Below the pieces are notes generated by a model. That model saw nothing but the letters and a program-made list of their open reading frames with translations. It ran no database searches and had not been told where the DNA came from. A stretch of DNA of 47,040 nucleotides, filler included, from an uncultured Methanosarcinales archaeon (GTDB taxonomy: Archaea > Nanobdellota > Nanobdellia > Woesearchaeales > UBA12501): the NCBI GenBank assembly GCA_964397315.1. It is 10 parts of 10 records of this genome, joined end to end, with 100 filler letters (N's around TTAATTAATTAA, not from the genome) between each part and the next. Parts side by side here need not be neighbours in the genome. Positions count along the whole stretch, not along the records: positions 1 to 7,029 come from CAYNHV010000046.1; 9 more parts are not named here. One strand, written 5' to 3'. How positions within the stretch are numbered: position 1 is the stretch's first letter; each line of letters opens with the position of its first letter. The position numbers were made by a program, and so were the translations under genes. Shown here in pieces: positions 1-37,294 of this stretch.

Positions 1-124
1 GAGGATATATAGCTTATTAAAAAAGCTTATGTCAGAGGGTTTCTGTAAAGCCGTTTTAAGCCACTCAACAGGCTCCAGGCCAGTAGCACAAAATATTTAA
101 ATGAAGCGGGTATCTTTGCCTGAT

Positions 125-409
125 ATGGCAGAAAAACAGCAGCAAGGCAGTGAAGCAAGTAAGGAAGAGCAGATAGGCTTCCACAAGGGGGCATTGAGCA
201 CTCTGGCAAAGGAGAGGGAGGAGATGCAGAAGATAGTGCAGGTTGTGGAGCAGCTAATGCAGATGCACGTTAAGGCCCTGAAGGACCTGGGAGTTGACCT
301 TGCCAAAGAAGCGGAAAAAGCAAAGTCACAATCAGGCCAGGCGCAGCAGGGCTCAGGTCAGACCGGCCAGGCAGCAGACAACAAGCCGATTGAGGATATT
401 TTGAAGTGA
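125..409 (+). CDS. Small hypothetical protein, coiled-coil core with Gln/Gly-rich tail
   Basis: ORF 101..409; ATG at 125 is the likelier start, about 25 nt after the TATA-like TATTTAAA at ~94-101. No recognisable family motif. Confidence 0.7.
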   Translation: MAEKQQQGSEASKEEQIGFHKGALSTLAKEREEMQKIVQVVEQLMQMHVKALKDLGVDLAKEAEKAKSQSGQAQQGSGQTGQAADNKPIEDILK

Positions 410-494
410 GAAGTAATCTGCTTGATATTCCTAATGATTTCTTGTAAGGGAGGTGTAGCGCCAGCGGATATGCCAATGAAAATCCCAAATCAAA

Positions 495-1901
495 ATGCAA
501 TTGAAAGAACCCCTGCTATACGCTGAAGATGTGTATGAGTTAGCAAGCAGGCCATCATTCCAGAGCCCCACCATGAGAGATGCGGGGTTCAGGAGCATAG
601 ACAGTTTTGTTGAAGAGACTTTTAATAAGATACCTTATGATGCAATAGAAAAGTATGAGCGCCCGAAAAACGGAAACAAGGCCAACAGCAGTCCAACGGG
701 CATAACAAGGGATGAGCAGGAAAAGCTCACCAGATTCTATGCGTGCCTTATGCACATAGGTCACGAGGGGATGTGGAGGGCAAGCGGCGAGCCTTACGGC
801 GTGCATCCTTCAAGGTCCGCTTTCTTTGAAGCTAATTATGGTGTGAGCAGCTTCTCCCTGGACTCCACCCTCATACATGACCTTGGAGAGGAATGGATGA
901 AAGTGCTTGGAGCGGATAAAAAGCAGAAGGATTACAGTTATATAAAAACAGCAGTACTCCTTGCGCCTGCAATAATGGCTTATGAATATGCGAGATCAGA
1001 ATTCAGCAGTCCTGAAAGGTTCTTCCCCCACATCAGCATGATACAGATGGTTTACAACAGCCTTACGAGATGGCCTGATGAGAGCTATTTTAAGAATCTT
1101 CATGACGCATTCTACACGCAGGAGAAGAACATTCCCTTAGGTAAGGAAGGGAAGAAGATAAACCTGCAGCATCCCAAAAAAAGAAAAAAAATAGTGGAGT
1201 ATCTCAACAGCCTTTTCCAGATAAACAATGAAAAACTTGTAAAAGATTTCCACAAGGATGTAATTCTGGGATATAATGCTGGCGAAGAGGGCTGGAAAAA
1301 AATAAGGAGAAGAGCGATAATGGGGAAAGTTGCTGATGGACGTGACAACTCTTCAGACCTGTTGAATCAGGAGACTACAAAGGCCATAAAGATACTCTCA
1401 AAAGACATCTTCACAATAAACCAGATAATGATAATGAAAAGCCTCATGAAAAAGACAGAGTCAGTGGAGGAGCTTAATAGGGTGATGCATGAAACAGAAG
1501 ATTTCAAGAAAGTGCTTTTCAGCGAGACCGGAGTGACGTCTCATCTTGTAAGGCAGCTTGAACGCACAGGAGAAATCCCTGAATCATACATGGAAAAGAT
1601 AAACAAGGAGCTTGATGAGTATGTTAAAAGCCCTTTCATCGCAATAAGAACCTCTCCTGAGGAGGACAACAGCTCTTTCAGCAACATACTTAACACTTGC
1701 ATAAGCGCGCTCTTGGGGGATGAGAATAACATTGTGGATAAGAATGACACCCCTAACCAGTGGAAATATTTGAGAGTTTTTCAAGAAGTGGGAAAAAAAT
1801 TCCTTGAGAAAGAAAAAAAGGGTGATAACTTCATCATCAGGAAATTTGATCTCAGGCAGCTCTACAAGGAGGAAGCCAGGCGAGAAGGGAGAGAGATGTA
1901 A
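495..1901 (+). CDS. RelA/SpoT-type HD-domain hydrolase (SAH/Mesh1-like, (p)ppGpp hydrolase fold) with insertions and a C-terminal extension
   Basis: H90-EGMWR95-ASGEPYGVHP105 matches the RSH HxxQxRxSGEPYxxHP motif. LIHD129LGEE matches LLHDxxED, and AIMGKVADGRDN matches IKLADRLHN. Confidence 0.8.
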   Translation: MQLKEPLLYAEDVYELASRPSFQSPTMRDAGFRSIDSFVEETFNKIPYDAIEKYERPKNGNKANSSPTGITRDEQEKLTRFYACLMHIGHEGMWRASGEPYGVHPSRSAFFEANYGVSSFSLDSTLIHDLGEEWMKVLGADKKQKDYSYIKTAVLLAPAIMAYEYARSEFSSPERFFPHISMIQMVYNSLTRWPDESYFKNLHDAFYTQEKNIPLGKEGKKINLQHPKKRKKIVEYLNSLFQINNEKLVKDFHKDVILGYNAGEEGWKKIRRRAIMGKVADGRDNSSDLLNQETTKAIKILSKDIFTINQIMIMKSLMKKTESVEELNRVMHETEDFKKVLFSETGVTSHLVRQLERTGEIPESYMEKINKELDEYVKSPFIAIRTSPEEDNSSFSNILNTCISALLGDENNIVDKNDTPNQWKYLRVFQEVGKKFLEKEKKGDNFIIRKFDLRQLYKEEARREGREM

Positions 1902-1949
1902 AAGGCAGATCTTAAGTTTCCAACCAAGCAGTATAAGTCTTTATTCAGA

Positions 1950-3926
1950 ATGACAACAATAGATGAAAGATGCCAGGAGCTTGCAAAACAGATACAGCTC
2001 ATAATAGACGGAAGAATAACCAAGTTTGACAACAGCTACAGGAAGTTCATAAGCGGGAGGGTGAACAACCTTATTGAGGATCTCATAAAGAAATCAGAAT
2101 ATCACAGGAACAGGGTGAGGGAAGTCATTTATTCAATTCTTGAGGATTACTTCCTCATGGAAAGCCCCCCTCTTGAGATAGAGGACTTCAACCGGGCTGT
2201 GTTTTATTATGACGTAGAAGACTCAAACGGCTTCAGGAGCGCGGAATTCCGCTCAAAGATGGTCTCAAACCTTAGCTCCAAAATAATGAGGAACTATTTC
2301 CTGAAAAAAACTCAGCTTGGAGAGGAGGAAAAGAAATACAGCAAAAACATAAGGGATGCGGTGGCCTTCAGGATAATAGCGGACCATCCTGACACGCCTG
2401 AGGTTGATTTCCTCAGCCTGTATGAGTCAAAGGATACCGAGTGGCTGCTGGATTTTATAAAGGATAACCAGGACTTGTTCGTGACAGGGAGCACGAGCAT
2501 TGATGATTATGCTGAAGCAGCTGACAAAGGGTTTGAGACATTGTTCAGCACTTTCAAGGAAGCTTACAGGGAGGGGTATGAGGGCAAAAACTGGGAATCG
2601 CTTTATTCGCTGGCATGGTTTATCCAGGACAACGTCAAGTCACTGGGCCGGCAGAAAATGAGTGGCAGGCCTCCCAGATATGAAATTCTCAATGTATCTG
2701 ATATTGCCATGAAGTACAGGCACTGGGATGTTACTGTGGCCTCTCAGTCATTATTTTACATTGGAGACCCCACAGGCAAGCTCTCAATCCATGAGGACAT
2801 AATAGTGTTCGGCAATGAGAGTGCAGCAAAAGAGTATGTGGATGACATGAAAGAGGCAATAAGATTCAAGCGCTCAAGGGCAGCAGAAGAAAGAGGTGTG
2901 AGCGAGAAGAGTTCCCCTGTAAAGTTCAATAATCTTGGCGAAAAGGATTCACAAATAGTGCATCAGGGAGCCTATACAATTGATGAATCAGAGGGAAACA
3001 GGCTTCTGCTCATGAGGAACGGGAATGTGGTGCTCGCCTTCAGGGGAAGCCTGGAAAACAGGGATTTCTTTGGAGAGGTTATCGGAAAAAGCGCGGGCAA
3101 GGAAAGGATTGACGGGCTTGCCAAGATAACACTCTCTGCTGCCGAGAAAAACCTGACTGAAGATGATAAAAAGAAGCTTGGAGCCCACCACTTCAGGATT
3201 CCCCCCATGTTCATACCAGAGGATTACCTCACCCATCATTACACAGACAGCGAAACAGCCCAGCAGACCTATATGCTAAAGAAAACCCACAGAAAACAGC
3301 TTTTCTTCAAGGATTACCTTTCAATACCAAGGGATGATTATGAGGGGCTCCACGGTACAATCATAGAGAAAGGCAGCAGCGAATACAGGGAGCCTGTTGA
3401 GATACAGCTGAGGACATCCCTGGGGCATTTTGAAGCAGAGAAAGGAAAAGCAAGTAGTGATGATTTTGAAAAGCTCAAGGATGAGAGAATAGACCTCAAG
3501 ACCAAGGACCTGGAATGCAGGGCTCAGGAAAGAAAGAAAAAGCTTCTGGAAAGATTCAGGAAGGATGTCCTGCCCGAAGCCATAATATCATTCTATAACT
3601 CAAGGATTTACGGGGAGATAGAGGACATCAAGGCCAGCTTCAGGAACATAGTTTGTGACAGCCACCCCTCAGAGGGCTTTTCAGGAGTTGACGCCTCGCT
3701 GAAAAGGATTGATTTCATTGTTGACCAGCTCACGAGGGATTTCACTCTTCTAAGGAAAGAGTTTCCCAGGCGCAGCTTTGACTACCTAAAGAGAGACATA
3801 GCACTCCTGCCTGACACGCTAAGAGCCGAAAAAGACACCCCATCAGCCGCAGCTTACCTGGACAACCTGGAGCAGACTCTCACGAGGAGGGGCTTTCCTG
3901 CAGGGGAATACAGAAACACCCCCTAA
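1950..3926 (+). CDS. RelA/SpoT-type nucleotide pyrophosphokinase (alarmone synthetase, SAS-like) with a ~280-aa internal insertion
   Basis: R101SKMVSNLSSK111 (RxKxxxSxxxK-like), IRD136AVAFR141II (DxxxxR), K454DYLSIPRDDYEGLH (KDYxxxPKxxGYxSLH-like) and VE484IQLRT..GHFEAEKG (ExQxRT..HxxAExG). Confidence 0.8.
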   Translation: MTTIDERCQELAKQIQLIIDGRITKFDNSYRKFISGRVNNLIEDLIKKSEYHRNRVREVIYSILEDYFLMESPPLEIEDFNRAVFYYDVEDSNGFRSAEFRSKMVSNLSSKIMRNYFLKKTQLGEEEKKYSKNIRDAVAFRIIADHPDTPEVDFLSLYESKDTEWLLDFIKDNQDLFVTGSTSIDDYAEAADKGFETLFSTFKEAYREGYEGKNWESLYSLAWFIQDNVKSLGRQKMSGRPPRYEILNVSDIAMKYRHWDVTVASQSLFYIGDPTGKLSIHEDIIVFGNESAAKEYVDDMKEAIRFKRSRAAEERGVSEKSSPVKFNNLGEKDSQIVHQGAYTIDESEGNRLLLMRNGNVVLAFRGSLENRDFFGEVIGKSAGKERIDGLAKITLSAAEKNLTEDDKKKLGAHHFRIPPMFIPEDYLTHHYTDSETAQQTYMLKKTHRKQLFFKDYLSIPRDDYEGLHGTIIEKGSSEYREPVEIQLRTSLGHFEAEKGKASSDDFEKLKDERIDLKTKDLECRAQERKKKLLERFRKDVLPEAIISFYNSRIYGEIEDIKASFRNIVCDSHPSEGFSGVDASLKRIDFIVDQLTRDFTLLRKEFPRRSFDYLKRDIALLPDTLRAEKDTPSAAAYLDNLEQTLTRRGFPAGEYRNTP

Positions 3927-4381
3927 TCCGCAAGAATCCTTCTTGTCTTTGGAACATAGTTTATTATCCTGCTGTCCTTTATCTTTCCGCAGCCCATGAA
4001 GTCATTATTGCTCTTTATTATGGCGAATCCCTCTTCCTTAATGCCCTGCTTCTCAACATCATTGCCCTTGAACCACTGCCTGGCCTCATCATCATCAAGC
4101 TCAACCACATTCTTTTCCGCGCAGGGGCCCACCATCTGGCTTCCCTCAATGCTCAGCCTGATATCCCCATCTTTCATTATCTCTCCGAAGTACATGCCCA
4201 TCTTGTCAATCCGCAGGGCTGAGTCATCCAGCCTCCTGATTTCCTTGTTAACCAGGTATATCTTTTTCTTCCTGCTCTGGAGAAGGACAAGATCTGTTTT
4301 GAAGTCGCAGGCCCACTGGCTGCTTACCTTCCTGAGAAGAGATTTCTTCTGCCTGGTGTTCAGAATAGCAAGGTTTTCCAT
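3923..4381 (-). CDS. NIP7/RsmF C-terminal-like pre-PUA/PUA RNA-binding protein
   Basis: GMYFG...RLSIEGSQMVGP..KNVVEL..EARQWFKGNDV...GCGK...NYVPKTRR resembles archaeal NIP7-like PUA proteins. Confidence 0.7.
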   Translation of the reverse strand: MENLAILNTRQKKSLLRKVSSQWACDFKTDLVLLQSRKKKIYLVNKEIRRLDDSALRIDKMGMYFGEIMKDGDIRLSIEGSQMVGPCAEKNVVELDDDEARQWFKGNDVEKQGIKEEGFAIIKSNNDFMGCGKIKDSRIINYVPKTRRILAD

Positions 4382-4424
4382 GATAAAAAGAGAGAAAAAA
4401 GAAACAATAAAAAGGTTTCTGAAT

Positions 4425-4742
4425 CTAGATGTTCAGCTTGTCAGCATACTTCCCCACAAGAGGGATTGGCTTCATCTGCCCTGACACTGAGTATACCAGG
4501 CCTATAATCCATAGTATAAACACAATCAGCGTCAGTATTGGTGCGATAACCCACCCAAGAAGGGGTATCATGCCGATGATAAATGCTGCAACCGCCACTA
4601 TAAACAGAACCAGGCTCTGCTTTGCATAATACATAGCATACTTGTCCTCTTTCTTGGCCAGGAAGATTATAAGGAATCCTATTATCCCAAGAAATATGGC
4701 CAGAAAAGCCCAAAGCTTTGACTCACCTTGTTTTGCCATCAA
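4425..4742 (-). CDS. DUF4870-type small membrane protein
   Basis: Three hydrophobic segments, YYAKQSLVLF and C-terminal PIPLVGKYA motifs. Confidence 0.75.
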   Translation of the reverse strand: MMAKQGESKLWAFLAIFLGIIGFLIIFLAKKEDKYAMYYAKQSLVLFIVAVAAFIIGMIPLLGWVIAPILTLIVFILWIIGLVYSVSGQMKPIPLVGKYADKLNI

Positions 4743-4820
4743 ATCACCTCATAATTGTTTTAATCCTCTTTTATGCTCAAAAAGACTTCTAATATTTAAA
4801 TATTTGGCAAAAAACGGGTT

Positions 4821-6587
4821 TCAAACCCCCCATACAGCATTATCCTTCCTTTTTATCTTTGCTATCTCCTTTATGACTTCTATCTCATCCTCTTTCAGGT
4901 ACTGCTTCAGGCCCTTGAGCTTCCTGAAATGGTCTTCAGGCACTGCGCTGTACAGCACGCTCTCTCCCTCAATCTGCCTTCCCACTGTCACACCGGGAAG
5001 TGAGACTGCCACCTGCTTTCCCTTGTCTGCCTCGCTGACATTCTCCTTCTCATGCTGTATGTTCTTGACCTCTGTAATCTCCCTTCCCTGGTCGTTCATG
5101 AGCGGCATGCCAGTCTTCAAAGTCCCGCCAGTGATATCCACCCCCACTATAGCAGGGTTGCTCTGCCTGAATAAGTAGTTGCCCAGCACCTTAATCTTGC
5201 AGGGCCTCACCAGCATATCCAGCTTCATCTTCTCAATGTTCTTTGACGCTTCCTCGCTCCACTTCTCATAATCCTCTATGATCCTGTATATTATGTCGCC
5301 AGATATTATCTTAACGCTTGAGGGCACGTGAACACCCTCCTGGACTCTGATGTTAAAGCCAAGTATGACACTGTAGAGGGGGTTCTTCTCAAAGTTGCTC
5401 TCTGCGTCAGTGATGTCCTTCTTTGTTATGCTGCCCAGGGATGCCTTCATTATGGGAATGCCTTTTTCCTTAAGCAGGTTTATCATTGCCTCAAGAGAGC
5501 CCACATTGTCCGCCTTCACCACCACACCCTCCTTTTCTGTCTGTATAAAGACATCAGCTATCTCCTGCTGCACCCTCTCCTTTATGGCGTCCACCTCTTC
5601 TTCGCTGCCTGCTGCAAAAAGGGGCATGCCTGCAACAGCTCCCTCAATGCCAGGGGCAGAGACCTTGACTCCTGTGGCAGCCCTGACTTGCTTGACAGCC
5701 ACAAACCTTAACTTTTTCTCCCTCATCTCAGAAAGGGGGGTGGGCTCAAACAATGCCCTGACCTTTGCCACTATGGGCTCGTTCACCCCTCCCACAACTA
5801 TGAAGTCATTAACCCTTAATGTGCCGTCATAGATTATGACATCAGCTGTCTTGCCGAGGCCCTTCTCCTCCTTCATCTCCATTATTGTCCCTTTAGCAGG
5901 CCCTTCAACATCGCATTTCAGGCAGTTTTCAAGGAATCGCTGGGCAAGGCCTGTAACAACCATTATGAGCTCAGGCAGGCCTTCTCCTGTCTTTGCAGAG
6001 CAGGGGACAATGGCAATCTGCTTTGTGAAATCCTCAACCCTGTCAAACCTCTCTGAATTCATGCCGAACTTCTCATGCAGCTGGCCCACAACCTCATAAA
6101 GCCGCTGGTCAATCTGGGCTCTTGTCTGGGAGCTCTGCTCCTGAATGTTCTGCAGAATCTGCTTTTCCGCCCCCTTCCATCCCGGAATGAGGTCTGTCTT
6201 GTTAGCTGCAATAACAAAAGGGGTCTTGTTTGACTTCAGTATCTCTATGGCCTCTATTGTCTGAGGCTTGAACCCTTCATTGATGTCAACAACAAGGATG
6301 GCTATGTCTGCCAGTGTGCCCCCTCTTTTCCTAAGGCTTGTGAATGCTGCATGGCCTGGAGTGTCTATAAAGAGAAGGCCGGGTATTGTCAGCTTCATGT
6401 TAAGGCTCTCAAGAAGGGGTCCGCACTTCTTTCTTATGGTGTCAAGGGGTATTATTGAGGCCCCTATTGCCTGGGTTATCGCCCCTGCCTCTCCTGAAAC
6501 AACAGATGTGCCCCTGATGCTGTCAAGAATGCTTGACTTTCCATGGTCCACATGGCCCAAAACAGAGCATATGGGGCTTCTCATCAT
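4821..6587 (-). CDS. infB: Translation initiation factor aIF5B (IF-2)
   Basis: RSPICSVLGHVDHGKS, GEAGAITQAIGA, DTPGHAAF and ANKTD GTPase motifs; archaeal length of about 590 aa. Confidence 0.97.
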   Translation of the reverse strand: MMRSPICSVLGHVDHGKSSILDSIRGTSVVSGEAGAITQAIGASIIPLDTIRKKCGPLLESLNMKLTIPGLLFIDTPGHAAFTSLRKRGGTLADIAILVVDINEGFKPQTIEAIEILKSNKTPFVIAANKTDLIPGWKGAEKQILQNIQEQSSQTRAQIDQRLYEVVGQLHEKFGMNSERFDRVEDFTKQIAIVPCSAKTGEGLPELIMVVTGLAQRFLENCLKCDVEGPAKGTIMEMKEEKGLGKTADVIIYDGTLRVNDFIVVGGVNEPIVAKVRALFEPTPLSEMREKKLRFVAVKQVRAATGVKVSAPGIEGAVAGMPLFAAGSEEEVDAIKERVQQEIADVFIQTEKEGVVVKADNVGSLEAMINLLKEKGIPIMKASLGSITKKDITDAESNFEKNPLYSVILGFNIRVQEGVHVPSSVKIISGDIIYRIIEDYEKWSEEASKNIEKMKLDMLVRPCKIKVLGNYLFRQSNPAIVGVDITGGTLKTGMPLMNDQGREITEVKNIQHEKENVSEADKGKQVAVSLPGVTVGRQIEGESVLYSAVPEDHFRKLKGLKQYLKEDEIEVIKEIAKIKRKDNAVWGV

Positions 6588-6689
6588 TCTGAACACCCTG
6601 AAAACATGAAATTCAGGCTGTTTTTAAAGCTTTTGATGAATATGCGGGCCTTGTTTATAGGGAGAATCATTGCCCTAAAAACTCTGGTA

Positions 6690-7029
6690 GTGGGGGTTTA
6701 TCTGTGTTAATAAGCCCTGGTGATTCCCTTTGGGAGAGTAGGTTACACTTCTGTTTCCAGGTACTTCAAGCCCTTGGGAAGCTGATATTTTAGTTTTTAC
6801 AGCTCCAGGTTCCACCCGCCCTCTGAGGTATATGCTTGTGCTTATGATTCCTGGTGCTCCCCTGAGAGATAATAGATTTATGATAATAACTCCTGGTAAT
6901 TCCCTCCCTTGCGAGGCTGGGTTAATGCTGATAAACCCAGGTACTTCCCACCCTTACTGCACAACTATTTAGCAGGTTCACACCTTCTAAGTTTGCACAA
7001 CTTACTCCTTCTTCCACCAATAAGCCCAC
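6690..7029 (-). repeat. Degenerate ~45-nt tandem array (5-6 units) with leader, copy A
   Basis: Minus-strand units begin AGGGTGGGAAGTACCTGG, AGGGAGGGAATTACCAGG, AGGGGAGCACCAGG, AGGGCGGGTGGAACCTGG and AGGGCTTGAAGTACCTGG. Homologous to 7181-7345 and 43790-44022. Confidence 0.7.
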
Positions 7030-7129
7030 NNNNNNNNNNNNNNNNNNNNNNNNNNNNNNNNNNNNNNNNNNNNTTAATTAATTAANNNNNNNNNNNNNNN
7101 NNNNNNNNNNNNNNNNNNNNNNNNNNNNN
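7030..7129. other. Artificial contig linker (N-run/TTAATTAATTAA/N-run)
   Basis: Identical 100-nt linkers at 14088-14187, 19521-19620, 24337-24436, 29123-29222, 33645-33744, 37501-37600, 40984-41083 and 44128-44227. Confidence 0.99.
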
Positions 7130-8098: not shown

Positions 8099-8536
8099 CT
8101 ATTCAATAAGTCCCATCTTCCTGAACCAGTACTCCCAAACAGGCTCAAGCTTAATCCTTTTTATCTCGCCAGGAGTGTACCATCCTGCTGACCTTGTCTC
8201 TCTCAGGCTTCTCCTGATATCTCCTTCAACCTCGCACTCATAAACCCGCCAGTGATGGACATTAACTCCCTTGCTGCACCAGTTCCAGTCAAGCTCTTCT
8301 TCATAAAGCTTTCGGTGCTTTAATATCCTGAGGCCCACCTCCTCCTCAACCTCTCTCTTCAGGGCATCCTCTTCTGTCTCTCCCTTATCAACATGGCCGG
8401 CAGGCCCGGCAAACCCAAAAGGCTCAACTGCCCTGTCTATGAGCAGGTACTTTCCCTCCCTCTTTATCACAGCACCGGATGAGTAATGCATCTGCTTCCC
8501 TGACCTTGAAACGCCTGTTTTTGGTGCCCCCATCAT
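8099..8536 (-). CDS. NUDIX hydrolase
   Basis: Nudix box PAGHVDKGETEEDALKREVEEEVGL. Confidence 0.92.
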   Translation of the reverse strand: MMGAPKTGVSRSGKQMHYSSGAVIKREGKYLLIDRAVEPFGFAGPAGHVDKGETEEDALKREVEEEVGLRILKHRKLYEEELDWNWCSKGVNVHHWRVYECEVEGDIRRSLRETRSAGWYTPGEIKRIKLEPVWEYWFRKMGLIE

Positions 8537-11418: not shown

Positions 11419-12342
11419 TTAGTTTAAATCATATGTCCAACAGGTTTTCATAAAATTTTCAAACCTTTCTGGCTCTAATTCTTTTGCCTTATTAAGATAT
11501 CCTTGATAATTATGTTTTCCCATAAAATATGCAAGCTGTGCAGCCGAGACAAGATTATCAAACCTTTCTTCTTTTTCAAGGGATTTTTTGAACAATTGCA
11601 TCGCTTTTCTTTCATTTTTGTTGAATAATCTCAATCCTTTGAGATAATAAGCTTCCCAATGTTCTGGCCACTTTTCTATTATCTTATCAATCAACTCAAG
11701 TGATGCCTTATTTTTTCCGATCTGGCCTAAAGCTCCTGCTTTTATCAGCATCGCATCTCTATTGTTCTCATCTATTTCAAGAATCTCATTACATATCTTG
11801 ATTGCTTTTTTGTCATTACAGCTTGCATTTCTATGAAATCTTGCCTCTTCCAGTAAAGCAGATATTTTTATTTCATTTTTAGAATATTCGGATTCTGCGC
11901 AGGAAATGCTTTTATTGTCATTCCTATTATTTTTTAGATGCTGCTTAAACATTTCATAGTGCTGCTTAATCCTTTTCATATAAATATCATCTTCAAGAAG
12001 TATTTCACTGAAAAGCTTTAATGCTTCTTTAGAATATTTAGTGTTTGTACCTTCTGTTTGAAGAACAGGCCCTTTAAGGTCTTTGGCATGTTCTTTATCC
12101 ATCCATCTCCGATAGTATTCTAATGATTCCCACCCAAAACCAATAGTTGCGACTATATCATTATTGTGGACAACATTTAGAAATACCCTTCTGCAATCAC
12201 AATCTGGATCATTGCAGTAGCTCTCGACAAAAAAATAGTCGCCTGCTGGAAGCTTGTATTTTGAACCTTCTGGCAGGAATATACATCTTGTCTCTTTTTT
12301 AGCAGTATCTTCAAATCTTAGATTAAACGGCTCCATCATCAT
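11419..12342 (-). CDS. Hypothetical protein with an N-terminal YCNDPDCDCRRV Cys-cluster domain and C-terminal TPR repeats
   Basis: Cys motif plus helical TPR-like repeats (AIKICNEILEIDENNRDAMLIKA; PEHWEAYYLKG). AT-rich region. Confidence 0.7.
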   Translation of the reverse strand: MMMEPFNLRFEDTAKKETRCIFLPEGSKYKLPAGDYFFVESYCNDPDCDCRRVFLNVVHNNDIVATIGFGWESLEYYRRWMDKEHAKDLKGPVLQTEGTNTKYSKEALKLFSEILLEDDIYMKRIKQHYEMFKQHLKNNRNDNKSISCAESEYSKNEIKISALLEEARFHRNASCNDKKAIKICNEILEIDENNRDAMLIKAGALGQIGKNKASLELIDKIIEKWPEHWEAYYLKGLRLFNKNERKAMQLFKKSLEKEERFDNLVSAAQLAYFMGKHNYQGYLNKAKELEPERFENFMKTCWTYDLN

Positions 12343-13850
12343 TTTTTATCACCTATATTTTTCATAGCCGTTTCCAACATATTTTTCATCTTCATCCTGA
12401 TCTCATCAGGCATATCAGCAAAATTATCCAATTCTTTAATTCCTGTCTCAATATAGTGCTTAGCCATTATTGGATTTTTGCTAAAATAAACCTGAGCCAT
12501 GAATACATAAATAGGAATAAAATCAGGATATTCCTGTGTAAACTCATTATAGAATTTATCAATTGTGCTATAATCGCCTTTCTCTTTAAGCCATATTAGA
12601 AAATCGTTTATTAGATTAGTAAAATAAGTTCCTTTTTCCATTAAAAAGATAAACTTTTGCTTATCATCCATAGAAAAAAATTCACTTTCTTCTCTACCTA
12701 ATGCTTTCTGTTCTTCGCTAATATCAATATCTTCATTTCTTAAAAGGATTGTATCTATAGCCTCTTTAAGCATACCGATCTTTTTTCCAAAAGCCTCTAT
12801 GTTTTTTTCATATTCTTTTGCTTCTTCTTCATCATACAGCTCATGGGAAAAAGCTATCCATTTGACATAAGCCTGCTCATCCTGCATCCATGTCCTGTTA
12901 TCAATCGCCCATAGAAGATAGTCTAAGATAATCTTTAGTTCATGGTGTGTTATAGGGTGTTCTTGAAGCACCTCACTTAATATTTCCATAATCTCAATCT
13001 CAAGCTCGTGCTTAAAAAAATTCAAGTCATTTAGGTAGTTTTCTTTTATTTTTTTCAGTATGTTTTTAATATCTTCATCTTTTAGATCATCATCTTCATA
13101 ATAAAAATATTCAGCTGTTGCATGCTCTATTTCACCAAGAAAGTCGCTGTATTCTTGTTCTTTTCCATAAAGGCTTTTTATATGCTTTACAGCTTCTGTG
13201 TCTTTTTTTAGAAGTTTTTGCAATGGCTTAAATTCAGAATCGCTGATATCAAAAATTGAGGATGGTGTTTCAACCAGAGCATACATTTTATAAATATTAA
13301 AATATTTTGAATGAGATATTAATTCATAAAAAGCCATGCAGTGAAATCTCTTAAATGCAGACATTATGCTTGACTTGATCTTTTCATCCTTTTCTTTTTC
13401 ATATAATTTAGTTAACTCAACATAAGAATCAACATTCAGCTTGTTTAGCTCATCGATCTCTTCTTTTGTATAAATCTGCTTTTTAGCTGCTCCTAGAATC
13501 CTTATTATACTAGTAAGGAAAATGGACCTGTAGCTTTCCATGACAGAATTTATGGTTCTTCTGACTGTGCCGTCTGTACTGGTGATGTTATTAAGCAATA
13601 TCTCTTTGTATCTTTTTAGATAATCTATAGGTATTCCAATATAAAGGGTAGCATTAAGCCCCCTTATTGTTATTTTTATATTTTCATCGTCTTTGCTTTC
13701 ATGATTGTCAAGTATTTCCTTAAAAAGCTCTTTTTTCTCATCTTCATTATCTCTGCTTTCCCACGAATTCTTCTTGATCTCTTTTACAGCTTCGTTTACC
13801 TTTTCCATTTCTCCAGAATACAAATCCTGTATCAGTTTTTGTTTGTTCAT
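12339..13850 (-). CDS. Acidic all-helical (HEAT/TPR-like) hypothetical protein
   Basis: 503-aa AT-rich ORF overlapping the next gene by ATGA, which suggests translational coupling. Confidence 0.7.
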   Translation of the reverse strand: MNKQKLIQDLYSGEMEKVNEAVKEIKKNSWESRDNEDEKKELFKEILDNHESKDDENIKITIRGLNATLYIGIPIDYLKRYKEILLNNITSTDGTVRRTINSVMESYRSIFLTSIIRILGAAKKQIYTKEEIDELNKLNVDSYVELTKLYEKEKDEKIKSSIMSAFKRFHCMAFYELISHSKYFNIYKMYALVETPSSIFDISDSEFKPLQKLLKKDTEAVKHIKSLYGKEQEYSDFLGEIEHATAEYFYYEDDDLKDEDIKNILKKIKENYLNDLNFFKHELEIEIMEILSEVLQEHPITHHELKIILDYLLWAIDNRTWMQDEQAYVKWIAFSHELYDEEEAKEYEKNIEAFGKKIGMLKEAIDTILLRNEDIDISEEQKALGREESEFFSMDDKQKFIFLMEKGTYFTNLINDFLIWLKEKGDYSTIDKFYNEFTQEYPDFIPIYVFMAQVYFSKNPIMAKHYIETGIKELDNFADMPDEIRMKMKNMLETAMKNIGDKK

Positions 13851-14010: not shown

Positions 14011-14255
14011 GTCTATGGGCATTGACAATTATGCTTCTTCTGCAATTTTGATGAAGATTTAAAAACCTCAAATTGCCCCTAAGGGCANNNNNNNNNNNNN
14101 NNNNNNNNNNNNNNNNNNNNNNNNNNNNNNNTTAATTAATTAANNNNNNNNNNNNNNNNNNNNNNNNNNNNNNNNNNNNNNNNNNNNCTCTAAAGAAATG
14201 GGAAACTTATGGTTTTTTATATAGGGGGTTTCTGGGGAGCCACATGACCAAAAGA

Positions 14256-19520: not shown

Positions 19521-19620
19521 NNNNNNNNNNNNNNNNNNNNNNNNNNNNNNNNNNNNNNNNNNNNTTAATTAATTAANNNNNNNNNNNNNNNNNNNNNNNN
19601 NNNNNNNNNNNNNNNNNNNN

Positions 19621-21100: not shown

Positions 21101-21904
21101 TCAAGAATCAAGAGGGCTTTTTATCCTCAAAATATCCTTATCAGAGACTCTTGTGTACACCATCGTGGTGTGAATATCAGAATGGCCCAACAGACCCTGT
21201 ATGTGCCTTATATCAATCCCCCTCTCCAGAAGATGCGCGGCAAAGGAGTGCCTCAATGTGTGAGGGGTCACCCTCTTTTTTATGCCTGCTTTTTCCGCAG
21301 CCTGCCTGACAATCCCCTGGATGCTCCTGGCAGTGTATCTGCTGCCTCTTGATGTCCTGAACACATGCCCTCTCTTTTCAGCATCAAGGCTCCTCAGGCC
21401 CTTCTTGACTTTAGGGGAGAGCATCACAACCCTGTCCTTCTTGCCCTTTGCCCTCTTGAGGTGGATCACGTTCCTGCTGAAATCCACATCCTCCCACTTC
21501 AGGCTGATGATCTCGCCCAGCCTCAGGCCTGCTGAATAAGCTGTCTGGATTATGAGCCTGTGGTTGAGATTCCTTGTTGACATTATCATGGCTTCAATCT
21601 CCCTTTTTGAGAGCACAACAGGAAGCCTCTTCTCTCTTTTCACATTCGGCAAGTCATTAAGAGCACGCTCCTCTCCCTTCAGCCTCAGAAAGAACTTTAC
21701 TGCGAAACCAGCAACCCTGACAGAATCATCCTTATGCCCCATCTCAATCAGGCCTGAAAGGTAATCTCTTGGCCCAAGGCCGGAATCAAGAAATTTTCTG
21801 ATGTGGAAGAGGTAAGCCTGGATTGTCTTATGAGAGTAACCCCTTAGCTTGGCCTCGTCTTCCACTAATTTTTTCCAATCTCCGCTTTTCAGGCTTCTTT
21901 CCAT
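21101..21904 (-). CDS. Tyrosine recombinase of the Xer/integron-integrase-like clade, lacking the IntI-specific insertion
   Basis: N-terminal LRGYSHKTIQAY, LPVVLS, YSAGLRLGE (R), KGKKDR (K), HTLRHSFA (HxxR), LLGH, TTMVYT (Y) and C-terminal IKSPLD. ATG at 21904 lies about 25 nt after a minus-strand TTATAAAA box. Confidence 0.93.
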   Translation of the reverse strand: MERSLKSGDWKKLVEDEAKLRGYSHKTIQAYLFHIRKFLDSGLGPRDYLSGLIEMGHKDDSVRVAGFAVKFFLRLKGEERALNDLPNVKREKRLPVVLSKREIEAMIMSTRNLNHRLIIQTAYSAGLRLGEIISLKWEDVDFSRNVIHLKRAKGKKDRVVMLSPKVKKGLRSLDAEKRGHVFRTSRGSRYTARSIQGIVRQAAEKAGIKKRVTPHTLRHSFAAHLLERGIDIRHIQGLLGHSDIHTTMVYTRVSDKDILRIKSPLDS

Positions 21905-21952
21905 GAAAGAACAGCGAAACAACCTGCTTTTATAAGCCTTTACCCCTCTTTT

Positions 21953-22005
21953 CCGGAACATCTCCGTATTAAACGCAACCCAACTGCGCTTAATAGGTGT
22001 TAGTT
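21953..22005. mobile_element. attC-like recombination hairpin next to the integrase
   Basis: GG-AAC-ATCTCCG-TATTAAACGCA-acccaac-TGCGCTTAATA-GGT-GTT-AGTT, with AAC and GTT core triplets around an 11-bp stem. The base composition shifts to AT-rich exactly here. Confidence 0.6.
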
Positions 22006-22249
22006 ACAATTTTTGAGAATGCCTACGAGTTAGAGTAAAGACAAAGAAATAGGAAATAATATTTTTTCTCCCACCCAATAGGAGAGACGCGCACAGTTTT
22101 CTTTTCAAGAAAACTAGATAGCAAAAACTTCGTTTTTGGATTTATAGGGGATTTTCTTAGTCGCTTATGCGACAGATAGTCTCGGCCTCGCCTCGAAGAA
22201 AAGTTTACTGATCATTCCTTTATTTACTACTTATTAGTTACTAATTAAT

Positions 22250-22264
22250 CGAAACATTTATATA
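22250..22264 (+). promoter_or_regulatory. Archaeal BRE-TATA promoter inside the cassette
   Basis: CGAAACATTTATATA about 33 nt upstream of the ATG at 22297. Confidence 0.6.
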
Positions 22265-22296
22265 GTATTAAAAATCCCTTTAAATTGAAGGCAAAA

Positions 22297-23151
22297 ATGG
22301 TTAAAGAAATAAACTACAAAAATATAGAATCAGAAATTGTTGACTGGGGGATGCATCATTGTAGACATATTTATGAAGATTCAAAAGGAAAAAGGACATT
22401 GGAACCTTCTGAAGCGGCAAGATTTGAATGGGAAGTTCTTAAACATTTTGCAGGCAAAAAAGATTATTCTGGAGAAATTGATTTTTCTAATTTTTCTAAT
22501 TATATTAGTTCAATAAACAAACGTGAAGTAGATCATATTGTATATGGGGCTTATGAAAACCTTGGAAAATATCTTAGAGATGGGGGTCATGTTCATGAAT
22601 TTATTACTGGACTTTCCCCCACTATCTTGACCTTATGTTTATTGGGAGGCTTAGAAAATGCAAAAGGAAAAAGTATTCTTGACTTAGGGTGTGGTTCAAT
22701 CACAAGCGATGCAGATGATGGAATAACGCTAAGAGATGAAATATGGTTTCAACCTTGGCTTTGCAGAACATTGCCTATTGTTGGAGTAAATTGTTATGGG
22801 GTAGATGCAGGAAATTTAGAAGGAGAGACCTTCCCGCATTACAATCTTGATTTAACAAAAAGTAACTCACTTGATGTTATTCATAGTAATAGTATGGATG
22901 CTATAGTTATGCATCATCTATTCCCTTCAATTAGACTTTCAGAAATTCTTTATGGAGATTCACTTGAAGTTCCTTCAAATTCGGATGGCTATACAGAAGC
23001 AATTAGTAAATATATAGAAAGAACAGGTAAAAACAACATTAGTAGTGGTGATGGATTGAGAGAATTTGCAAATAGAGATAAACTTTATCCGATACTCAAA
23101 CCTCAATTAGAAAGAATATTAAAACCTGAAGGAGAAATATTTATCCGATAA
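22297..23151 (+). CDS. Class I SAM-dependent methyltransferase-like protein
   Basis: KGKSILDLGCG (motif I), CYGVDAG, NSMDAIV and C-terminal RILKPEGEIF. Confidence 0.75.
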   Translation: MVKEINYKNIESEIVDWGMHHCRHIYEDSKGKRTLEPSEAARFEWEVLKHFAGKKDYSGEIDFSNFSNYISSINKREVDHIVYGAYENLGKYLRDGGHVHEFITGLSPTILTLCLLGGLENAKGKSILDLGCGSITSDADDGITLRDEIWFQPWLCRTLPIVGVNCYGVDAGNLEGETFPHYNLDLTKSNSLDVIHSNSMDAIVMHHLFPSIRLSEILYGDSLEVPSNSDGYTEAISKYIERTGKNNISSGDGLREFANRDKLYPILKPQLERILKPEGEIFIR

Positions 23152-23152
23152 A

Positions 23153-23659
23153 ATGAATCCCAATAAAATTTTAATTATTGAAGATCAAACTCCTACCTTA
23201 GATAGTATTAGCTATTCAGTCAAAAAAGTGGTTATATGTGAAGAAGAGGCTCTTCCAAGATTTGGTGATTACACATCAGAAGAAGTTGAACAAGAACTAA
23301 GAGAAAGAGGAGTCGATTTTGCTAGATGTTATAATGAAGCTCAGAAACATATCTTGAATCAAACAAAAAACTATGGTTTGGTATTCTTAGATCATCGGAT
23401 GCCTTATGAAAACTGCGTCGAATTAGAAAGAACGGATTCTAGATCATTTAGTGATAGAATGCGAGAGATAGGTTATGGATTAATTCCCATAATAAGGCAA
23501 AGCCATCCTAATGTAAAAATAATTGGAACGTCTTCCTTGAGTGAGAGCAAATTAAGATATTTTGAAAAACCTGATTTTTATTTGGATAAAAGTTCAGTCA
23601 GAACAATTGATAAAGATTTGTCAGCAATTCTAAAAGAAATTGGAGAATTTAGTGATTAA
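23153..23659 (+). CDS. Stand-alone response-regulator receiver (REC) domain protein
   Basis: KILIIED, LVFLDHRMP (phospho-Asp), IIGTSS and FYLDK, so the canonical receiver residues are all present. Confidence 0.75.
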   Translation: MNPNKILIIEDQTPTLDSISYSVKKVVICEEEALPRFGDYTSEEVEQELRERGVDFARCYNEAQKHILNQTKNYGLVFLDHRMPYENCVELERTDSRSFSDRMREIGYGLIPIIRQSHPNVKIIGTSSLSESKLRYFEKPDFYLDKSSVRTIDKDLSAILKEIGEFSD

Positions 23660-23660
23660 A

Positions 23661-24152
23661 ATGGATGCTAATAAAATAGCCAAGATAGTAGAACATGGTT
23701 ATTTATTTAGAGGCACTTCTGATAAGCTATTTGAAAGATTTAGAAATTTTCAGGAATCTTACCTAGGATATCAGTCAGGAAGTGGAAATGAGATTAGAAC
23801 ATCTACAAGTTTAAGAGTAATCCATGCAATGTCAAGCGCAGTAAGAAGAAATAAGAGTTATAAACAGGATTATTCATTAAGAGGCTGTAAACCTTTACTT
23901 TTAGCAATTGATGCAAAACCCTATATTGATTTTATTCAACCTGGAGACGAATTTTATGGTTTAGATCACATTCATCTAGCAGAACTGGAAATAACTAAAC
24001 CAATAAATTTTGAGGATATAACTATTGTTAATTCTGTTGATACTCTTGAAAGAGTTTGCAGAAATGAATTTCAAATTCTAGAAAGTATGTCTTTTGAAAC
24101 TGATGAAGTGAAGAGAGTCGTTGATTATTTTAATCAATATTTTAAAAGATGA
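23661..24152 (+). CDS. Putative ADP-ribosyltransferase-fold protein
   Basis: YLFRGT, RTSTSLR..A...A, LLLAID and ELEI...I.FEDI follow the R-S-E ART strand order. Assigned by pattern only. Confidence 0.5.
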   Translation: MDANKIAKIVEHGYLFRGTSDKLFERFRNFQESYLGYQSGSGNEIRTSTSLRVIHAMSSAVRRNKSYKQDYSLRGCKPLLLAIDAKPYIDFIQPGDEFYGLDHIHLAELEITKPINFEDITIVNSVDTLERVCRNEFQILESMSFETDEVKRVVDYFNQYFKR

Positions 24153-33853: not shown

Positions 33854-36800
33854 ATGGGAAGCGCAAACAAGGGCATTACAGGGCTGAAACCAGCAATTCT
33901 GCTTTCCATATGCCTGCTCGCTTTTCTCTCCCTGCACCTAATGATAGCACAGGACTCATCCACAAGAGTGGTGCATCAGCAGGACAGCGCTCCTGAGAAA
34001 GCTGTGCAGGAGAAAGCTGCCAATGAACAAGATCCTTCCCTTTCTTCAGGCAGGCAAACGCAAGCCAATCCAAATGATAAGAAAAGCCTGTCAAAACACC
34101 GCGCTCTGGACAGCTCAGGAGAGGACAGTGCAGAAAGCAGCTCAAAAAACCCTGCCAAGAGCTCTCATGACAGCGAAAAACCTGCTGAAGGACAGCCCGG
34201 CATATCAGAGGATTCCATAATAACCAACAGCAGGATAAGCCCTGATTCCCGCGTGGAAAGCTCAGAGATAATAGATTCTATTGTAAAGGCCTCCACAGTG
34301 ATAAAATCATTCATAGATCCCTCCAACATAATAAACTCCACAATAATACAGTCAGACATCATAGACTCAAACATCACAAACAGCATTGTGAACAGCTCAT
34401 ACATTGAAGGCAGCGAGATAGAGTACATGGAAGTGCAAAACGCGAACATAACAGGCAATTTCATGCACCAGGGCACAATAATATTCCCTGACAACACAGG
34501 CATAACCGGCTCTTTGAGCATTGAAAGCATCATGAACAGGAGCTCAAGCCCGTGCATAATACCTCACGACGGCATGGTGCTGAAGGACGGCTCCAGCATA
34601 AGACTCTGCAAGGGGGATTACAGCGTGACTGACAAGGGAGATGAGGGCGTGATAAGGCTTGAAGGCAGCAGCATAACCATAGAATGCGGGAACGCGAGCA
34701 TGACAGGAGACAGCACAGGAACAGCCATACAAGCCAACGGCTCCCTGACAGTGGAGGATGTCGTACAGGCAACCAAAGACAGCCAGCTGACAATGGAGCA
34801 GATAAGGGATTACCTGGAGAACAACGTAACCTATCTCAGCAACATAACACTAAACAACTGCAGGCTGGAAAACTTCAGCAGGGCAATAGCCCTTAACAGC
34901 ATAAAAGAATCCAATATACAGGGACTCAACCTCAGCGGCAATGAAGAAGGCATCCAGATGCTCGCCAAAAAATCTCAAATTTCAGACAGCATAATCTCAG
35001 GAAGCAGCAAAGCAGGCATCACCATCATAGGACTTAACAACACACTGGAGGACAGCATAATATACAACAACAGGCAGGGAGTGATGCACGCGGGCTTCTA
35101 CACCATCATCAGGAACAACCAGATGCTCAACAACACCCAGAACGGAATGAATCTCCTCTTCACCGCAGAAAGCACCATAACCAACAACACAGCCAAATAC
35201 AACACAAAAGCAGGAATACACCTGGCAGAAGCAGACAACAACACCATAGAAAACAACGAGCTCAGCAGGAACAGCATAGGACTGAAGATGAGCGGCTTTG
35301 TCAGCACAGGCCCCTCCGAAAACAACACAATCCACAGCAACACCATAATCAACAACACAAGAGCGGGAATACAGGCAACAGCAGGAACACTTCACAGGCT
35401 TGCAGCAGCAATATCACGCGCATTCGGATCAGACCAGCCAAAACCAGCCGGGCACCGCATAGAAAAGACAAGCATAAAAAACAACATCCTCAACAATCCC
35501 GCAGCAGACCTCACAGTCAAGGGAGAGGATTTCAACAATAATACAATACAGCAAAACCACTTCAAAGGAGGAGGAATTAACATAAGCTGCAGGATGAACA
35601 ATGAGATACAGGCGAATAATTACTCAAGCAATGCCAACTTCATAAGAGATAACGCCCCCTGCGTGACAGACAATGACTGCGATGACGGGAACTCATCAAC
35701 AAAAGACACCTGCATAAGCAAAGGCCTCTGCACAGGATTCTGCACAAACGGAGAGATTAACGTCAACGGAACAATAACAGACGAGTTTGGAAACCCTGCT
35801 GAGGGAATAAACATATCATTCTACCAGGAGACACAATACAGCCCAATACTGAACAACACCAACACAGACAGCTTAACGCCAAAAATAATTCCAGACACAA
35901 CAACAAACACAAACGGATACTACGAAACCTACCTCCCAGAAAACACAGTATGGCATATGAGAATGCAGGGAAGCTCAAAAAAGGACTTCAACATATTCAC
36001 CAACAGGACAAACAAAGGCAGGGGCCACAACACAGACATCTTTGAAAACGAAACCTATGACTCAAACAATGACTTTAACGTGCAAGGCCACATCATATAC
36101 GAAGGAAAGCACGAGCACGGCAACAAGTATGTCTGCGGTGAGTCAGTGGAATTCATGATGTTTGGGATGAACTGGGAAGACACTAATGTGACCATAACCT
36201 ATGCTGTTGAGAACCACACAGGCGGAGGAGAGCCAACTGACAACAGGGATGTGTGCGATGGCGTTGCAGGATTCACCAATGAGTCTGACGTGCTGTGGTG
36301 CTCAAACATAAGCGATACAAAGGATATCCTGCACCTGCCGGCAGACGGGAAAAAATATGAAAAGTATTTTGCTTTTGACATCCCCTGCAGATGGAATGGG
36401 GGAAGATATGACATTCACGTTTATGACAATTCCAGATGGGGCAAGATGCACATGATAGGAACATTCTTTATCGTCCCGGATAATGAAAGCCAGCCCCAGC
36501 TAAACATCAGCACGCTGGAAATCGACGCCAGCGGAATCTCAATGTACACCAATGAAAGTGTTGACCTTAAATTCCACGCAGAAGATGTAAGCAATGAAAC
36601 AATACCTGAAAATGAAGATAAGATAATACCTGAGCTTGCGGTGATGAATTATGTAGACTGCACTCTCAATGTCACTTTTGACAAGGATGTAGAAGTTGAC
36701 ACCGACGGGGATGGCAACACATCAAATGATGTTGACTTCTCAACCTGCGGCGGCTGGGGAAGGTATGTCTGGAACCTCTCCTATCCAAGAAGCGAATTTG

Positions 36801-37294
36801 CAGGAGACGACGGAATCTTCAACGTCACAGAAGACATCTTCAACCTTGCAAGAACCCACAAGGCAAAATTCACAGTCACCGACGAGGCAGGGAACAAGGC
36901 AGAGGAATATATTAACATAACCCTCTGGATGACTGAAGATGAGGGAAGAGAGTTGGGAGCGCATATCATGATAGATGCGGGATTTGATTTTTTAGAAACA
37001 TCTAAAAATTATACCACAACATCAACATTTAACCCAATCCACCTGTTCATAGACAAGTGGGATATGGAGAACGGCATTGAATACATGACTCCTAACGACC
37101 CTAACTCAAGCATAAGAGCTGACCTGCCTGACGATTGGAGACAACAGCTCCAGAATTCTATAGACGGCTGCGAGGCTGAATATATCCTGGCAGCGAACAC
37201 ATCCACAGCAGCCGAGTTCAATACAACAGCGTATGACCATTTTCGTTATGTAATTTGTGAATGTTATGATGAAGACGGCCCTCTATGTAATTAA
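33854..37294 (+). CDS. Large secreted/surface protein with parallel beta-helix (NosD/CASH-like) repeats, a Cys-rich linker and Ig-like/Ca-binding segments
   Basis: N-terminal hydrophobic anchor, I-x-x-S-x pentapeptide repeats, NNTI..N/GI.L beta-helix repeats, CVTDNDCDDGNSSTKDTC, DTDGDGNTSND and VTDEAGN. Confidence 0.8.
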   Translation: MGSANKGITGLKPAILLSICLLAFLSLHLMIAQDSSTRVVHQQDSAPEKAVQEKAANEQDPSLSSGRQTQANPNDKKSLSKHRALDSSGEDSAESSSKNPAKSSHDSEKPAEGQPGISEDSIITNSRISPDSRVESSEIIDSIVKASTVIKSFIDPSNIINSTIIQSDIIDSNITNSIVNSSYIEGSEIEYMEVQNANITGNFMHQGTIIFPDNTGITGSLSIESIMNRSSSPCIIPHDGMVLKDGSSIRLCKGDYSVTDKGDEGVIRLEGSSITIECGNASMTGDSTGTAIQANGSLTVEDVVQATKDSQLTMEQIRDYLENNVTYLSNITLNNCRLENFSRAIALNSIKESNIQGLNLSGNEEGIQMLAKKSQISDSIISGSSKAGITIIGLNNTLEDSIIYNNRQGVMHAGFYTIIRNNQMLNNTQNGMNLLFTAESTITNNTAKYNTKAGIHLAEADNNTIENNELSRNSIGLKMSGFVSTGPSENNTIHSNTIINNTRAGIQATAGTLHRLAAAISRAFGSDQPKPAGHRIEKTSIKNNILNNPAADLTVKGEDFNNNTIQQNHFKGGGINISCRMNNEIQANNYSSNANFIRDNAPCVTDNDCDDGNSSTKDTCISKGLCTGFCTNGEINVNGTITDEFGNPAEGINISFYQETQYSPILNNTNTDSLTPKIIPDTTTNTNGYYETYLPENTVWHMRMQGSSKKDFNIFTNRTNKGRGHNTDIFENETYDSNNDFNVQGHIIYEGKHEHGNKYVCGESVEFMMFGMNWEDTNVTITYAVENHTGGGEPTDNRDVCDGVAGFTNESDVLWCSNISDTKDILHLPADGKKYEKYFAFDIPCRWNGGRYDIHVYDNSRWGKMHMIGTFFIVPDNESQPQLNISTLEIDASGISMYTNESVDLKFHAEDVSNETIPENEDKIIPELAVMNYVDCTLNVTFDKDVEVDTDGDGNTSNDVDFSTCGGWGRYVWNLSYPRSEFAGDDGIFNVTEDIFNLARTHKAKFTVTDEAGNKAEEYINITLWMTEDEGRELGAHIMIDAGFDFLETSKNYTTTSTFNPIHLFIDKWDMENGIEYMTPNDPNSSIRADLPDDWRQQLQNSIDGCEAEYILAANTSTAAEFNTTAYDHFRYVICECYDEDGPLCN

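Follow-up and report, generated by a model that had tools for sequence, protein, structure and literature searches.

A divergent RelA/SpoT-type hydrolase and synthetase gene pair alongside a canonical Rel in a woesearchaeal archaeon

Bacterial stress signalling relies centrally on RelA/SpoT homologue (RSH) enzymes, which also act, as toxSAS, in toxin-antitoxin and anti-phage systems. To our knowledge, almost nothing is known of RSH enzymes in archaea. This raises the question what two adjacent RSH-like genes may do in a woesearchaeal archaeon which possesses an ordinary long Rel, too. The genes, termed open reading frames ORF1 (495..1901, 468 aa) and ORF2 (1950..3926, 658 aa), are located in a stretch of 47,040 nucleotides, hereafter the window, which consists of 10 contigs joined by runs of N (7030..7129, 14088..14187, 19521..19620 and six more). 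Only the genes at positions 1..7029 (contig CAYNHV010000046.1, G000:C46, 7029 bp) are physically linked to the pair. Thereby G000 denotes the genome of the window, G001, G003 and G004 are genomes of the same genus, and G381 belongs to another family of the same order. ORF1 and ORF2 are encoded on the plus strand in the same reading frame. A single in-frame TAA lies between them, followed by a spacer of 48 nt (1902..1949), and in coordinates, co-orientation and gap the locus is as described in an earlier note made from the sequence alone. Comparisons at sequence and profile level support the view that both genes are real and separate and that they belong, as strongly diverged members, to the hydrolase and synthetase lineages of the RSH superfamily. 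Very probably, both derive from RSH genes, one encoding a hydrolase and the other a synthetase, and have conserved the catalytic residues.

ORF2 was matched by the Pfam family RelA_SpoT (PF04607) with 37.4 bits (cut-off 27) at aa 442-503. Thereby only positions 46-105 of the 113 profile positions are covered, i.e. the C-terminal half of the model. In a six-frame search of the genome the same family scored 28.4 bits at this locus. The relatives P0007 and P0008 of ORF2 pass RelA_SpoT, too, whereas P0004 and the proteins of G007 and G013 fail at E<=0.01. All synthetase motifs claimed in the earlier note were found by direct reading, namely R101-S-K103 (Syn1), D136-A-V-A-F-R141 (Syn2), Y464-E-G-L-H468 (Syn3) and E484-I-Q-L-R-T489 (Syn4). 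The N-terminal half of the synthetase (aa 94-153, 2229..2408, +), delimited by the invariant columns of six sequences, contains G94-F-R96, R101xK103...K111, D136xxAxR141 and the family-specific D145-H-P-x-T149-P150-x-V152. The C-terminal half (aa 450-513, 3297..3488, +), recognised by RelA_SpoT, by the profile search of the PDB and by hhalign, contains F-K454-D-Y, P460-R461, Y464xxxH468 and E484xQ486xxT489. The six aligned sequences of the ORF2 family share just 24-29% identity with ORF2, and in all six G94, R96, R101, K103, K111, D136, D145, T149, P150, Y464, H468, E484, Q486 and T489 are invariant. In housekeeping enzymes, the equivalents of K454, R461, Y464 and H468 serve in binding of the acceptor nucleotide. 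The profile of the ORF2 family (6 members) retrieved Rel, RelA, RelP and RelQ structures from the PDB with E-values of 1.7e-8 to 2e-3. For FaRel2, activity and toxicity are reported to need the Asp and Tyr equivalent to those of ORF2 (10.1101/2021.04.30.441581).

An AlphaFold2 (AF2) model of ORF2, built from 6 sequences, reached a pLDDT of 79.6 and a pTM of 0.76. Among 48,161 chains compared with this model by VIA-align, B. subtilis Rel (6yxa) ranked first (Z 11.3, rmsd 6.8, 157 residues aligned). The small alarmone synthetase (SAS) SAS2 (6fgk; Z 10.0, rmsd 4.2, 149 of 184 residues), CapRel (7ztb; Z 9.3), SpoT and RelP (Z 9.0 each) and SAS1 (Z 8.9) were found, too, and between them the list contained matches of the C-terminal domain of ORF2 to generic helical bundles. 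The alignments extend from residues ~21-49 to residues ~497-513 of the model and thus span both sides of a large insertion, so that ORF2, as modelled, has a nucleotidyltransferase-like SYNTH fold assembled from two segments. The separation of Syn2 and Syn3 is enlarged by ~285 residues; from D136 to FKD we counted 318 aa in ORF2 versus 33 in the canonical Rel of G000. According to the AF2 secondary structure, the insertion (~aa 155-445, 2412..3284, +) consists of a helical hairpin and, after it, a domain of mostly beta structure. It is confidently folded, with pLDDT values mostly of 80-95 for aa 140-230 and 250-380. Fold matches of the insertion were weak and in a common range (TiME 7cu8, PknH sensor 4esq, DcrB 6e8a and PA94 1tu1; Z 7.2-7.4), and a search of the ESM Atlas yielded nothing for it. 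The C-terminal domain (aa 520-658, 3507..3923, +) is helical in the AF2 model and comprises ~140 aa, the relatives having ~150 extra residues there; its fold matches were restricted to generic helical bundles. With 658 aa, a non-contiguous SYNTH domain and this extra domain, ORF2, predicted to be a pyrophosphokinase with a split catalytic domain, falls outside the SAS class. It is three times as large as a typical SAS, the unusual size having been remarked on already in the earlier note. Using PADLOC, P0007 and P0008 weakly matched PDC-S33 inside the Syn3/Syn4 region.

ORF1 is a putative divergent RSH-type HD (pyrophospho)hydrolase. The three hydrolase motifs claimed for it are present, as R95-A-S-G-E-P-Y-G-V-H104-P and H128-D-L-G-E132-E133 (777..893, +), both aligned to RSH hydrolase domains, and as K278-V-A-D281-G-R-D-N285 (1326..1349, +). 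Single-sequence matches of ORF1 to SpoT and Rel were marginal, and the NCBIfam SpoT model matched weakly (E 0.0017). The family profile, built from the four known members (ORF1, P0003 and the proteins of G007 and G013), gave a more distinct picture in the PDB, where the top 13 rows were all RSH hydrolases or small alarmone hydrolases (SAH), with E-values of 1.1e-6 to 6e-3. In hhalign, the family aligned with canonical RSHs with 91.9% probability over aa 85-134. In a second, weak stretch (1.2 bits), KxADxxxN aligns in the right order with KLADRxHN of SpoT. R95, H104, H128, D129, E132, E133, D281 and N285 are kept in three of the four family members, D281 being invariant in all four and N285 in three. 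The G013-type protein is without equivalents of SGEPY/HP and of N285. In ORF1 and in the canonical Rel encoded by G000 the motifs are equally spaced from SGE to HP (7) and from HP to HD (24), whereas 152 residues lie between HD and KxAD in ORF1 compared to 66 in Rel, indicating an insertion of ~86 aa. A helical C-terminal extension of ~180 aa follows. Neither this insertion nor that of ORF2, nor the common reading frame of the two genes, is mentioned in the earlier note. The ESM Atlas yielded just leads below 0.9 for ORF1, pointing to HD_4-bearing clusters. A predicted complex of ORF2 (1-520) and ORF1 (60-468) gave an ipSAE of 0.00 in two runs, a value which is uninformative on binding.

Since both genes share one frame with one TAA between them, they might be an ordinary long Rel which was frameshifted or misassembled, or bacterial contamination of the bin. 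In G007 the genes are separated by two stops, and in G013 they overlap by 23 nt in another frame. Separate genes with three different junctions in three genomes are not explained by a frameshifted ordinary Rel. Furthermore, contigs of three sequencing runs bridge the ORF1-ORF2 junction with 0 differences at a depth of 4-8; all three runs belong to a single study, and this assembly may itself derive from one of them. Neither protein contains a TGS or ACT domain by Pfam search, as the earlier note had stated, and no hydrolase-fused form of ORF2 turned up among 1.84 billion representative proteins. The pair is flanked by the archaeal genes for aIF5B and NIP7 in a synteny that is found elsewhere, and G000 is 93% complete with 0.07% contamination. 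The view that the pair resides on a genuinely archaeal contig of the Woesearchaeota-type DPANN lineage thus holds, aIF5B sharing the same 7029-bp contig, and the two separate proteins postulated in the earlier note are real. We regard the probability of an artefact as negligible.

One premise of the earlier note, an archaeon without canonical stringent-response system, proved to be wrong. G000 also encodes a canonical long RSH of 639 aa on another contig (G000:C45, locus L005 604..2523), with intact HD and synthetase motifs and C-terminal regions of TGS and ACT type. The profile of the ORF2 family matched 15 of the 17 genomes of the family. Full-length matches were confined to G000, G007 and G013; the remaining ones scored 27-37 bits, covered the canonical core only and lie in open frames of 379-719 aa. 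Two of these canonical matches were read as proteins, and the canonical Syn3/Syn4 stretch was extracted from 16 loci. Moreover, RSHs of DPANN archaea are published: a report from 2021 (PMC8407392) gives RelA/SpoT in 41.7% of Woesearchaeota and infers a bacterial origin. Atkinson et al. (2011; PMC3153485) had stated that archaea lack long RSHs. In a tree of the C-terminal half of the synthetase (74 columns, 26 rows, no SAS references) the resident canonical RSHs formed a tight clade (100/100). The ORF2 family falls outside of it, on branches of 0.65-4.5 changes per column; because of these long branches on 74 columns we make no statement on its origin. A description of the pair was not found in print, in line with the earlier note, the RSH subfamily tables of the supplements lying outside this search. 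The split, insertion-bearing family may be listed there, either in a named 'div' group or as unclassified.

How widespread is the pair? HMMER searches of 1.84 billion representative proteins with ORF2 gave 9 matches at E<=1e-3, i.e. ORF2 itself, five relatives (P0004-P0008, 566-946 aa, 29-33% identity) and three ordinary long RSHs. A word-index search retrieved only ORF2 itself and, for ORF1, one relative. Scans of genome contigs and of metagenome contigs gave one locus each (L024 and L025), representing the same match. The public record with this 810-aa relative of ORF2 is labelled Candidatus Woesearchaeota, and the protein is annotated as 'hypothetical protein'; the pair is invisible to standard annotation. 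As to conservation of the pair, which the earlier note had suggested examining in DPANN genomes, it is present in G000, G007 and G013, but an ORF2-type gene occurs in just 4 of the 401 sampled genomes of the order (E<=1e-12). The pair is fast-evolving relative to its flanks and to canonical Rel. Compared with L025, aIF5B and NIP7 of G000 show 68% and 47% identity, respectively, and canonical Rel shows 63% identity between genera. ORF2 shares 27% identity with its G007 and G013 relatives (27-30% for its relatives overall), and ORF1 shares 19-37% with its own.

The pair occupies a variable slot between a small conserved gene and the gene for NIP7. The small gene (101..409, +), forming the left edge of the slot, encodes a Glu/Lys/Gln-rich protein of 102 aa without a Pfam family above threshold and was found in 14 of the 17 family genomes with 62-81% identity. 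In G000, G007 and G013 the order is small gene, ORF1-type gene, ORF2-type gene and, on the opposite strand, NIP7. Beyond NIP7, aIF5B was seen on the opposite strand in G000 and G013. In G381 an ORF2-type gene encoding 946 aa adjoins NIP7 and aIF5B. In G001 and G003, both of the same genus as G000, the slot is empty and the small gene abuts NIP7 at a distance of ~45 and ~28 nt, respectively; aIF5B of G001 is 75% identical to that of G000. The slot of G004 contains an HD-like gene (L042 1311..2576) which is 28% identical (E 3e-32) to the G013 protein and has no BLASTP similarity to ORF1. It is followed by a run of N which may hide an ORF2-type gene. Since G004 thus has a G013-type gene, two very different cassette types exist within one genus. 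In G005, G010, G012, G015 and G016, NIP7 is outside the stretch examined, two of those contigs ending there.

A different three-gene cassette was detected in the same slot of G014 (L039 1588..5761) and G011 (L048 4433..8968). It encodes a protein of 761 or 820 aa with an HDxxE[DE] motif, a protein of 507 or 330 aa with a sub-threshold RelA_SpoT match (22.3 and 24.5 bits) and a third, small protein which is weakly GNAT-like in G014. The RelA_SpoT-like domain of the G014 cassette is contiguous and without large insertion. As candidate members of the ORF1 and ORF2 families the G014 proteins were rejected, hhalign probabilities of 0.1% and 6.4% not being significant. On this ground we treat the G011 and G014 cassettes as positional analogues only, which provide a lead.

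Among known systems, the pair shares its layout with ATfaRel and FaRel. In Cellulomonas marina (10.1101/575399), an SAH gene lies upstream of the synthetase gene and its product acts as type IV antitoxin. In both cases a hydrolase gene, encoding a PbcSpo-type SAH in ATfaRel, directly precedes a synthetase gene, and both encode separate proteins without TGS or ACT domains; the ATfaRel hydrolase can degrade the product of the synthetase. However, ATfaRel and FaRel are bacterial, small single-domain proteins, whereas the archaeal proteins comprise 468 and 658 aa, have insertions in both catalytic domains as well as extra helical domains and are encoded at a fixed chromosomal slot. The order of hydrolase and synthetase is likewise that of long Rel enzymes (B. 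subtilis Rel 6yxa/8acu, S. equisimilis Rel 1vj7, G000:C45), as the earlier note had recognised. Long Rel enzymes also provide the best sequence and fold matches and have the same catalytic motifs and an identical spacing of the N-terminal HD motifs. Unlike these, the pair consists of two polypeptides which lack TGS, helical, zinc-finger or ACT-type regulatory regions and contain insertions of 285 aa (ORF2) and 86 aa (ORF1). With RelQ/SAS1 (5dec), RelP/SAS2 (6fgk, 6ewz) and CapRel (7ztb) ORF2 shares the synthetase fold (Z 8.9-10.0, and 9.3 for CapRel, 149-172 residues aligned), but its match at sequence level is confined to Syn3 and Syn4. Like CapRel, a fused toxSAS, ORF2 has an extra domain with a possible role in gating of the active site; in ORF2, this domain is inserted within the catalytic domain and not appended.

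From the observations above we infer the following on substrates, regulation and the possible roles as antidote and in conflict. ORF1 and ORF2 would form a dispensable, fast-evolving two-gene module of RSH descent alongside the ordinary long Rel. ORF2 would be an Mg2+-dependent pyrophosphokinase, with ATP as donor of the beta,gamma-pyrophosphate and a purine nucleoside moiety as acceptor at its 3'-OH. The acceptor might be a free nucleotide, leading to a (p)ppGpp- or (p)ppApp-type product, or an RNA 3' end such as that of tRNA. The inserted domain and the C-terminal helical domain may gate this activity. ORF1 would be a metal-dependent HD pyrophosphohydrolase which takes off that 3'-pyrophosphate and would therefore reset or neutralise ORF2. 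The module might then act as a growth-arrest effector with hydrolase antidote, following type-IV logic, in virus conflict or in host-symbiont dealings and not in a housekeeping stringent response. Hypervariability, frequent loss and redundancy with the conserved Rel lead us to favour, tentatively, such a toxSAS-like, conflict-related module, at a probability of roughly 40%. The extreme divergence with preserved active site, the insertion at the active-site region and the ATfaRel-FaRel gene order speak for it, too.

Several observations weigh against a toxSAS-like module. Some concern its enzymology. Neither Pfam HD_4 (PF13328) nor HD matched ORF1 at E<=1, nor its relatives at E<=0.01; of the two profile families named in the earlier note, RelA_SpoT thus recognises ORF2, but HD_4 misses ORF1. 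For ORF1, AF2 modelling from 4 sequences gave a mean pLDDT of 44.6, and the model is unusable for a fold search. Foldseek gave nothing at E<=1e-3 in the PDB for the ORF2 model, with RelP, Rel and CapRel as weak rows only, and the hhalign match of the ORF2 family to canonical RSHs (97.3% probability) is limited to aa 450-513. Syn3 and Syn4 were aligned by HMMER and hhalign, whereas the register of Syn1 and Syn2 against canonical R245/K247/K255/D268/R273 was read by eye, complemented by the extent of the VIA alignments. At the Arg position of ExQxRT, members of the ORF2 family have R, K, M or A. Others concern the genomic context. G381 has no ORF1-type gene adjacent to its ORF2-type gene and none genome-wide by the ORF1 profile. 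The GC content of the pair resembles that of its flanks, Pfam detected no integrase or transposase genes on its contig, the direct and inverted repeats flanking it are only chance-sized, and PADLOC gave no match for the proteins of the window. Finally, in three families of the order the locus is fixed beside NIP7 and aIF5B, in better agreement with vertical inheritance than with a mobile element of defence or toxin-antitoxin type.

Several points of this genomic context would suit a second, non-toxic alarmone circuit, in which ORF2 makes (p)ppGpp or a related nucleotide when its inserted domain senses a ligand and ORF1 degrades the product. The role of such a circuit would be complementary to that of the canonical, ribosome-coupled Rel, comparable to the role of RelP and RelQ next to Rel in Firmicutes. 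It draws on the same homology, residue and fold evidence as the toxSAS-like module, and a chromosomal locus fixed among translation-related genes in three families, the lack of mobile or defence neighbours together with the negative PADLOC result, the retention of K454, R461, Y464 and H468, and the G381 member without adjacent hydrolase all agree with it. However, the clean loss in genomes of the same genus, the extreme divergence compared to flanks and canonical Rel, and the differing cassette types inside one genus speak against such a function. Housekeeping SAS enzymes are small and well conserved, which counts against it as well. We consider both the second circuit and its complementary role doubtful.

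Alternatively, it might be that the proteins are decaying or neo-functionalised relics, i.e. RSH descendants which are no longer catalytic and act as binding or scaffold proteins or are nearing loss. Very fast evolution and frequent loss point in this direction, as do the G013-type ORF1 without equivalents of SGEPY/HP and N285, the non-conserved Arg of ExQxRT and the large insertions breaking both catalytic domains. But every member has long intact frames, all six sequences of the ORF2 family retain the catalytic Asp, Glu, Tyr and His in spite of 24-29% identity, the metal ligands of ORF1 are kept in three of four members, and the inserted domain is itself confidently folded. Relics are quite improbable. 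Going beyond a toxSAS-like module as such, the slot might be a hypervariable immunity or host-interaction locus of Woesearchaeales, with ORF2 as the first archaeal toxSAS-type effector and ORF1 as its dedicated eraser, a proposal that is speculative and rather unlikely in this form. Thereby the inserted domain would be a sensor for a viral or host cue, triggering pyrophosphorylation of tRNA or another translation target or synthesis of a non-ppGpp alarmone, which is equally speculative. It is likewise only conceivable that the cassette types of close relatives are exchanged alleles under diversifying selection.

As to the remaining features of the contig, no terminator-like site was found on the plus strand in the spacer between ORF1 and ORF2. 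As a possible internal promoter we considered TATAAG at 1933-1938, which resembles an archaeal TATA box; it is too near the ATG to decide either way. Downstream, the gene for the NIP7-like PUA protein (3923..4381, -) is convergent with ORF2, with an overlap of 4 nt at the stop codons. The same strand as that of the NIP7-like gene also encodes a small membrane protein (DUF4870) and aIF5B (4821..6596, -), which is part of the conserved syntenic backbone.

Further features were noticed elsewhere in the window. In the region 21101..24152, a tyrosine-recombinase (Phage_integrase) gene (21101..21961) adjoins a low-GC stretch (0.32 compared to ~0.45) with three ORFs without Pfam matches; this region may represent an integrated element. 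GC is likewise low (0.32) at 11419..13850, a stretch with two ORFs of 307 and 503 aa without convincing Pfam family. A protein of 1146 aa with a right-handed beta-helix/NosD region is encoded at 33854..37294 (+), with a strong AT skew (0.44). Furthermore, a Nudix hydrolase gene (8099..8536, -) adjoins an asparagine synthase gene on a contig other than that of the pair.

What the locus means for RSH biology depends in part on whether the proteins are active. The pair indicates that an RSH synthetase domain can tolerate an inserted domain of 285 residues. Very small genomes, which otherwise shed genes, contain it in addition to a conserved Rel. If inactive, it would be a record of how far RSH domains can drift. 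If active, it would provide a test case for the gating of a pyrophosphokinase from inside its catalytic domain, illustrate how a cassette can evolve fast while its chromosomal slot stays fixed, and give access to the biology of second messengers or of RNA-end modification in DPANN archaea.

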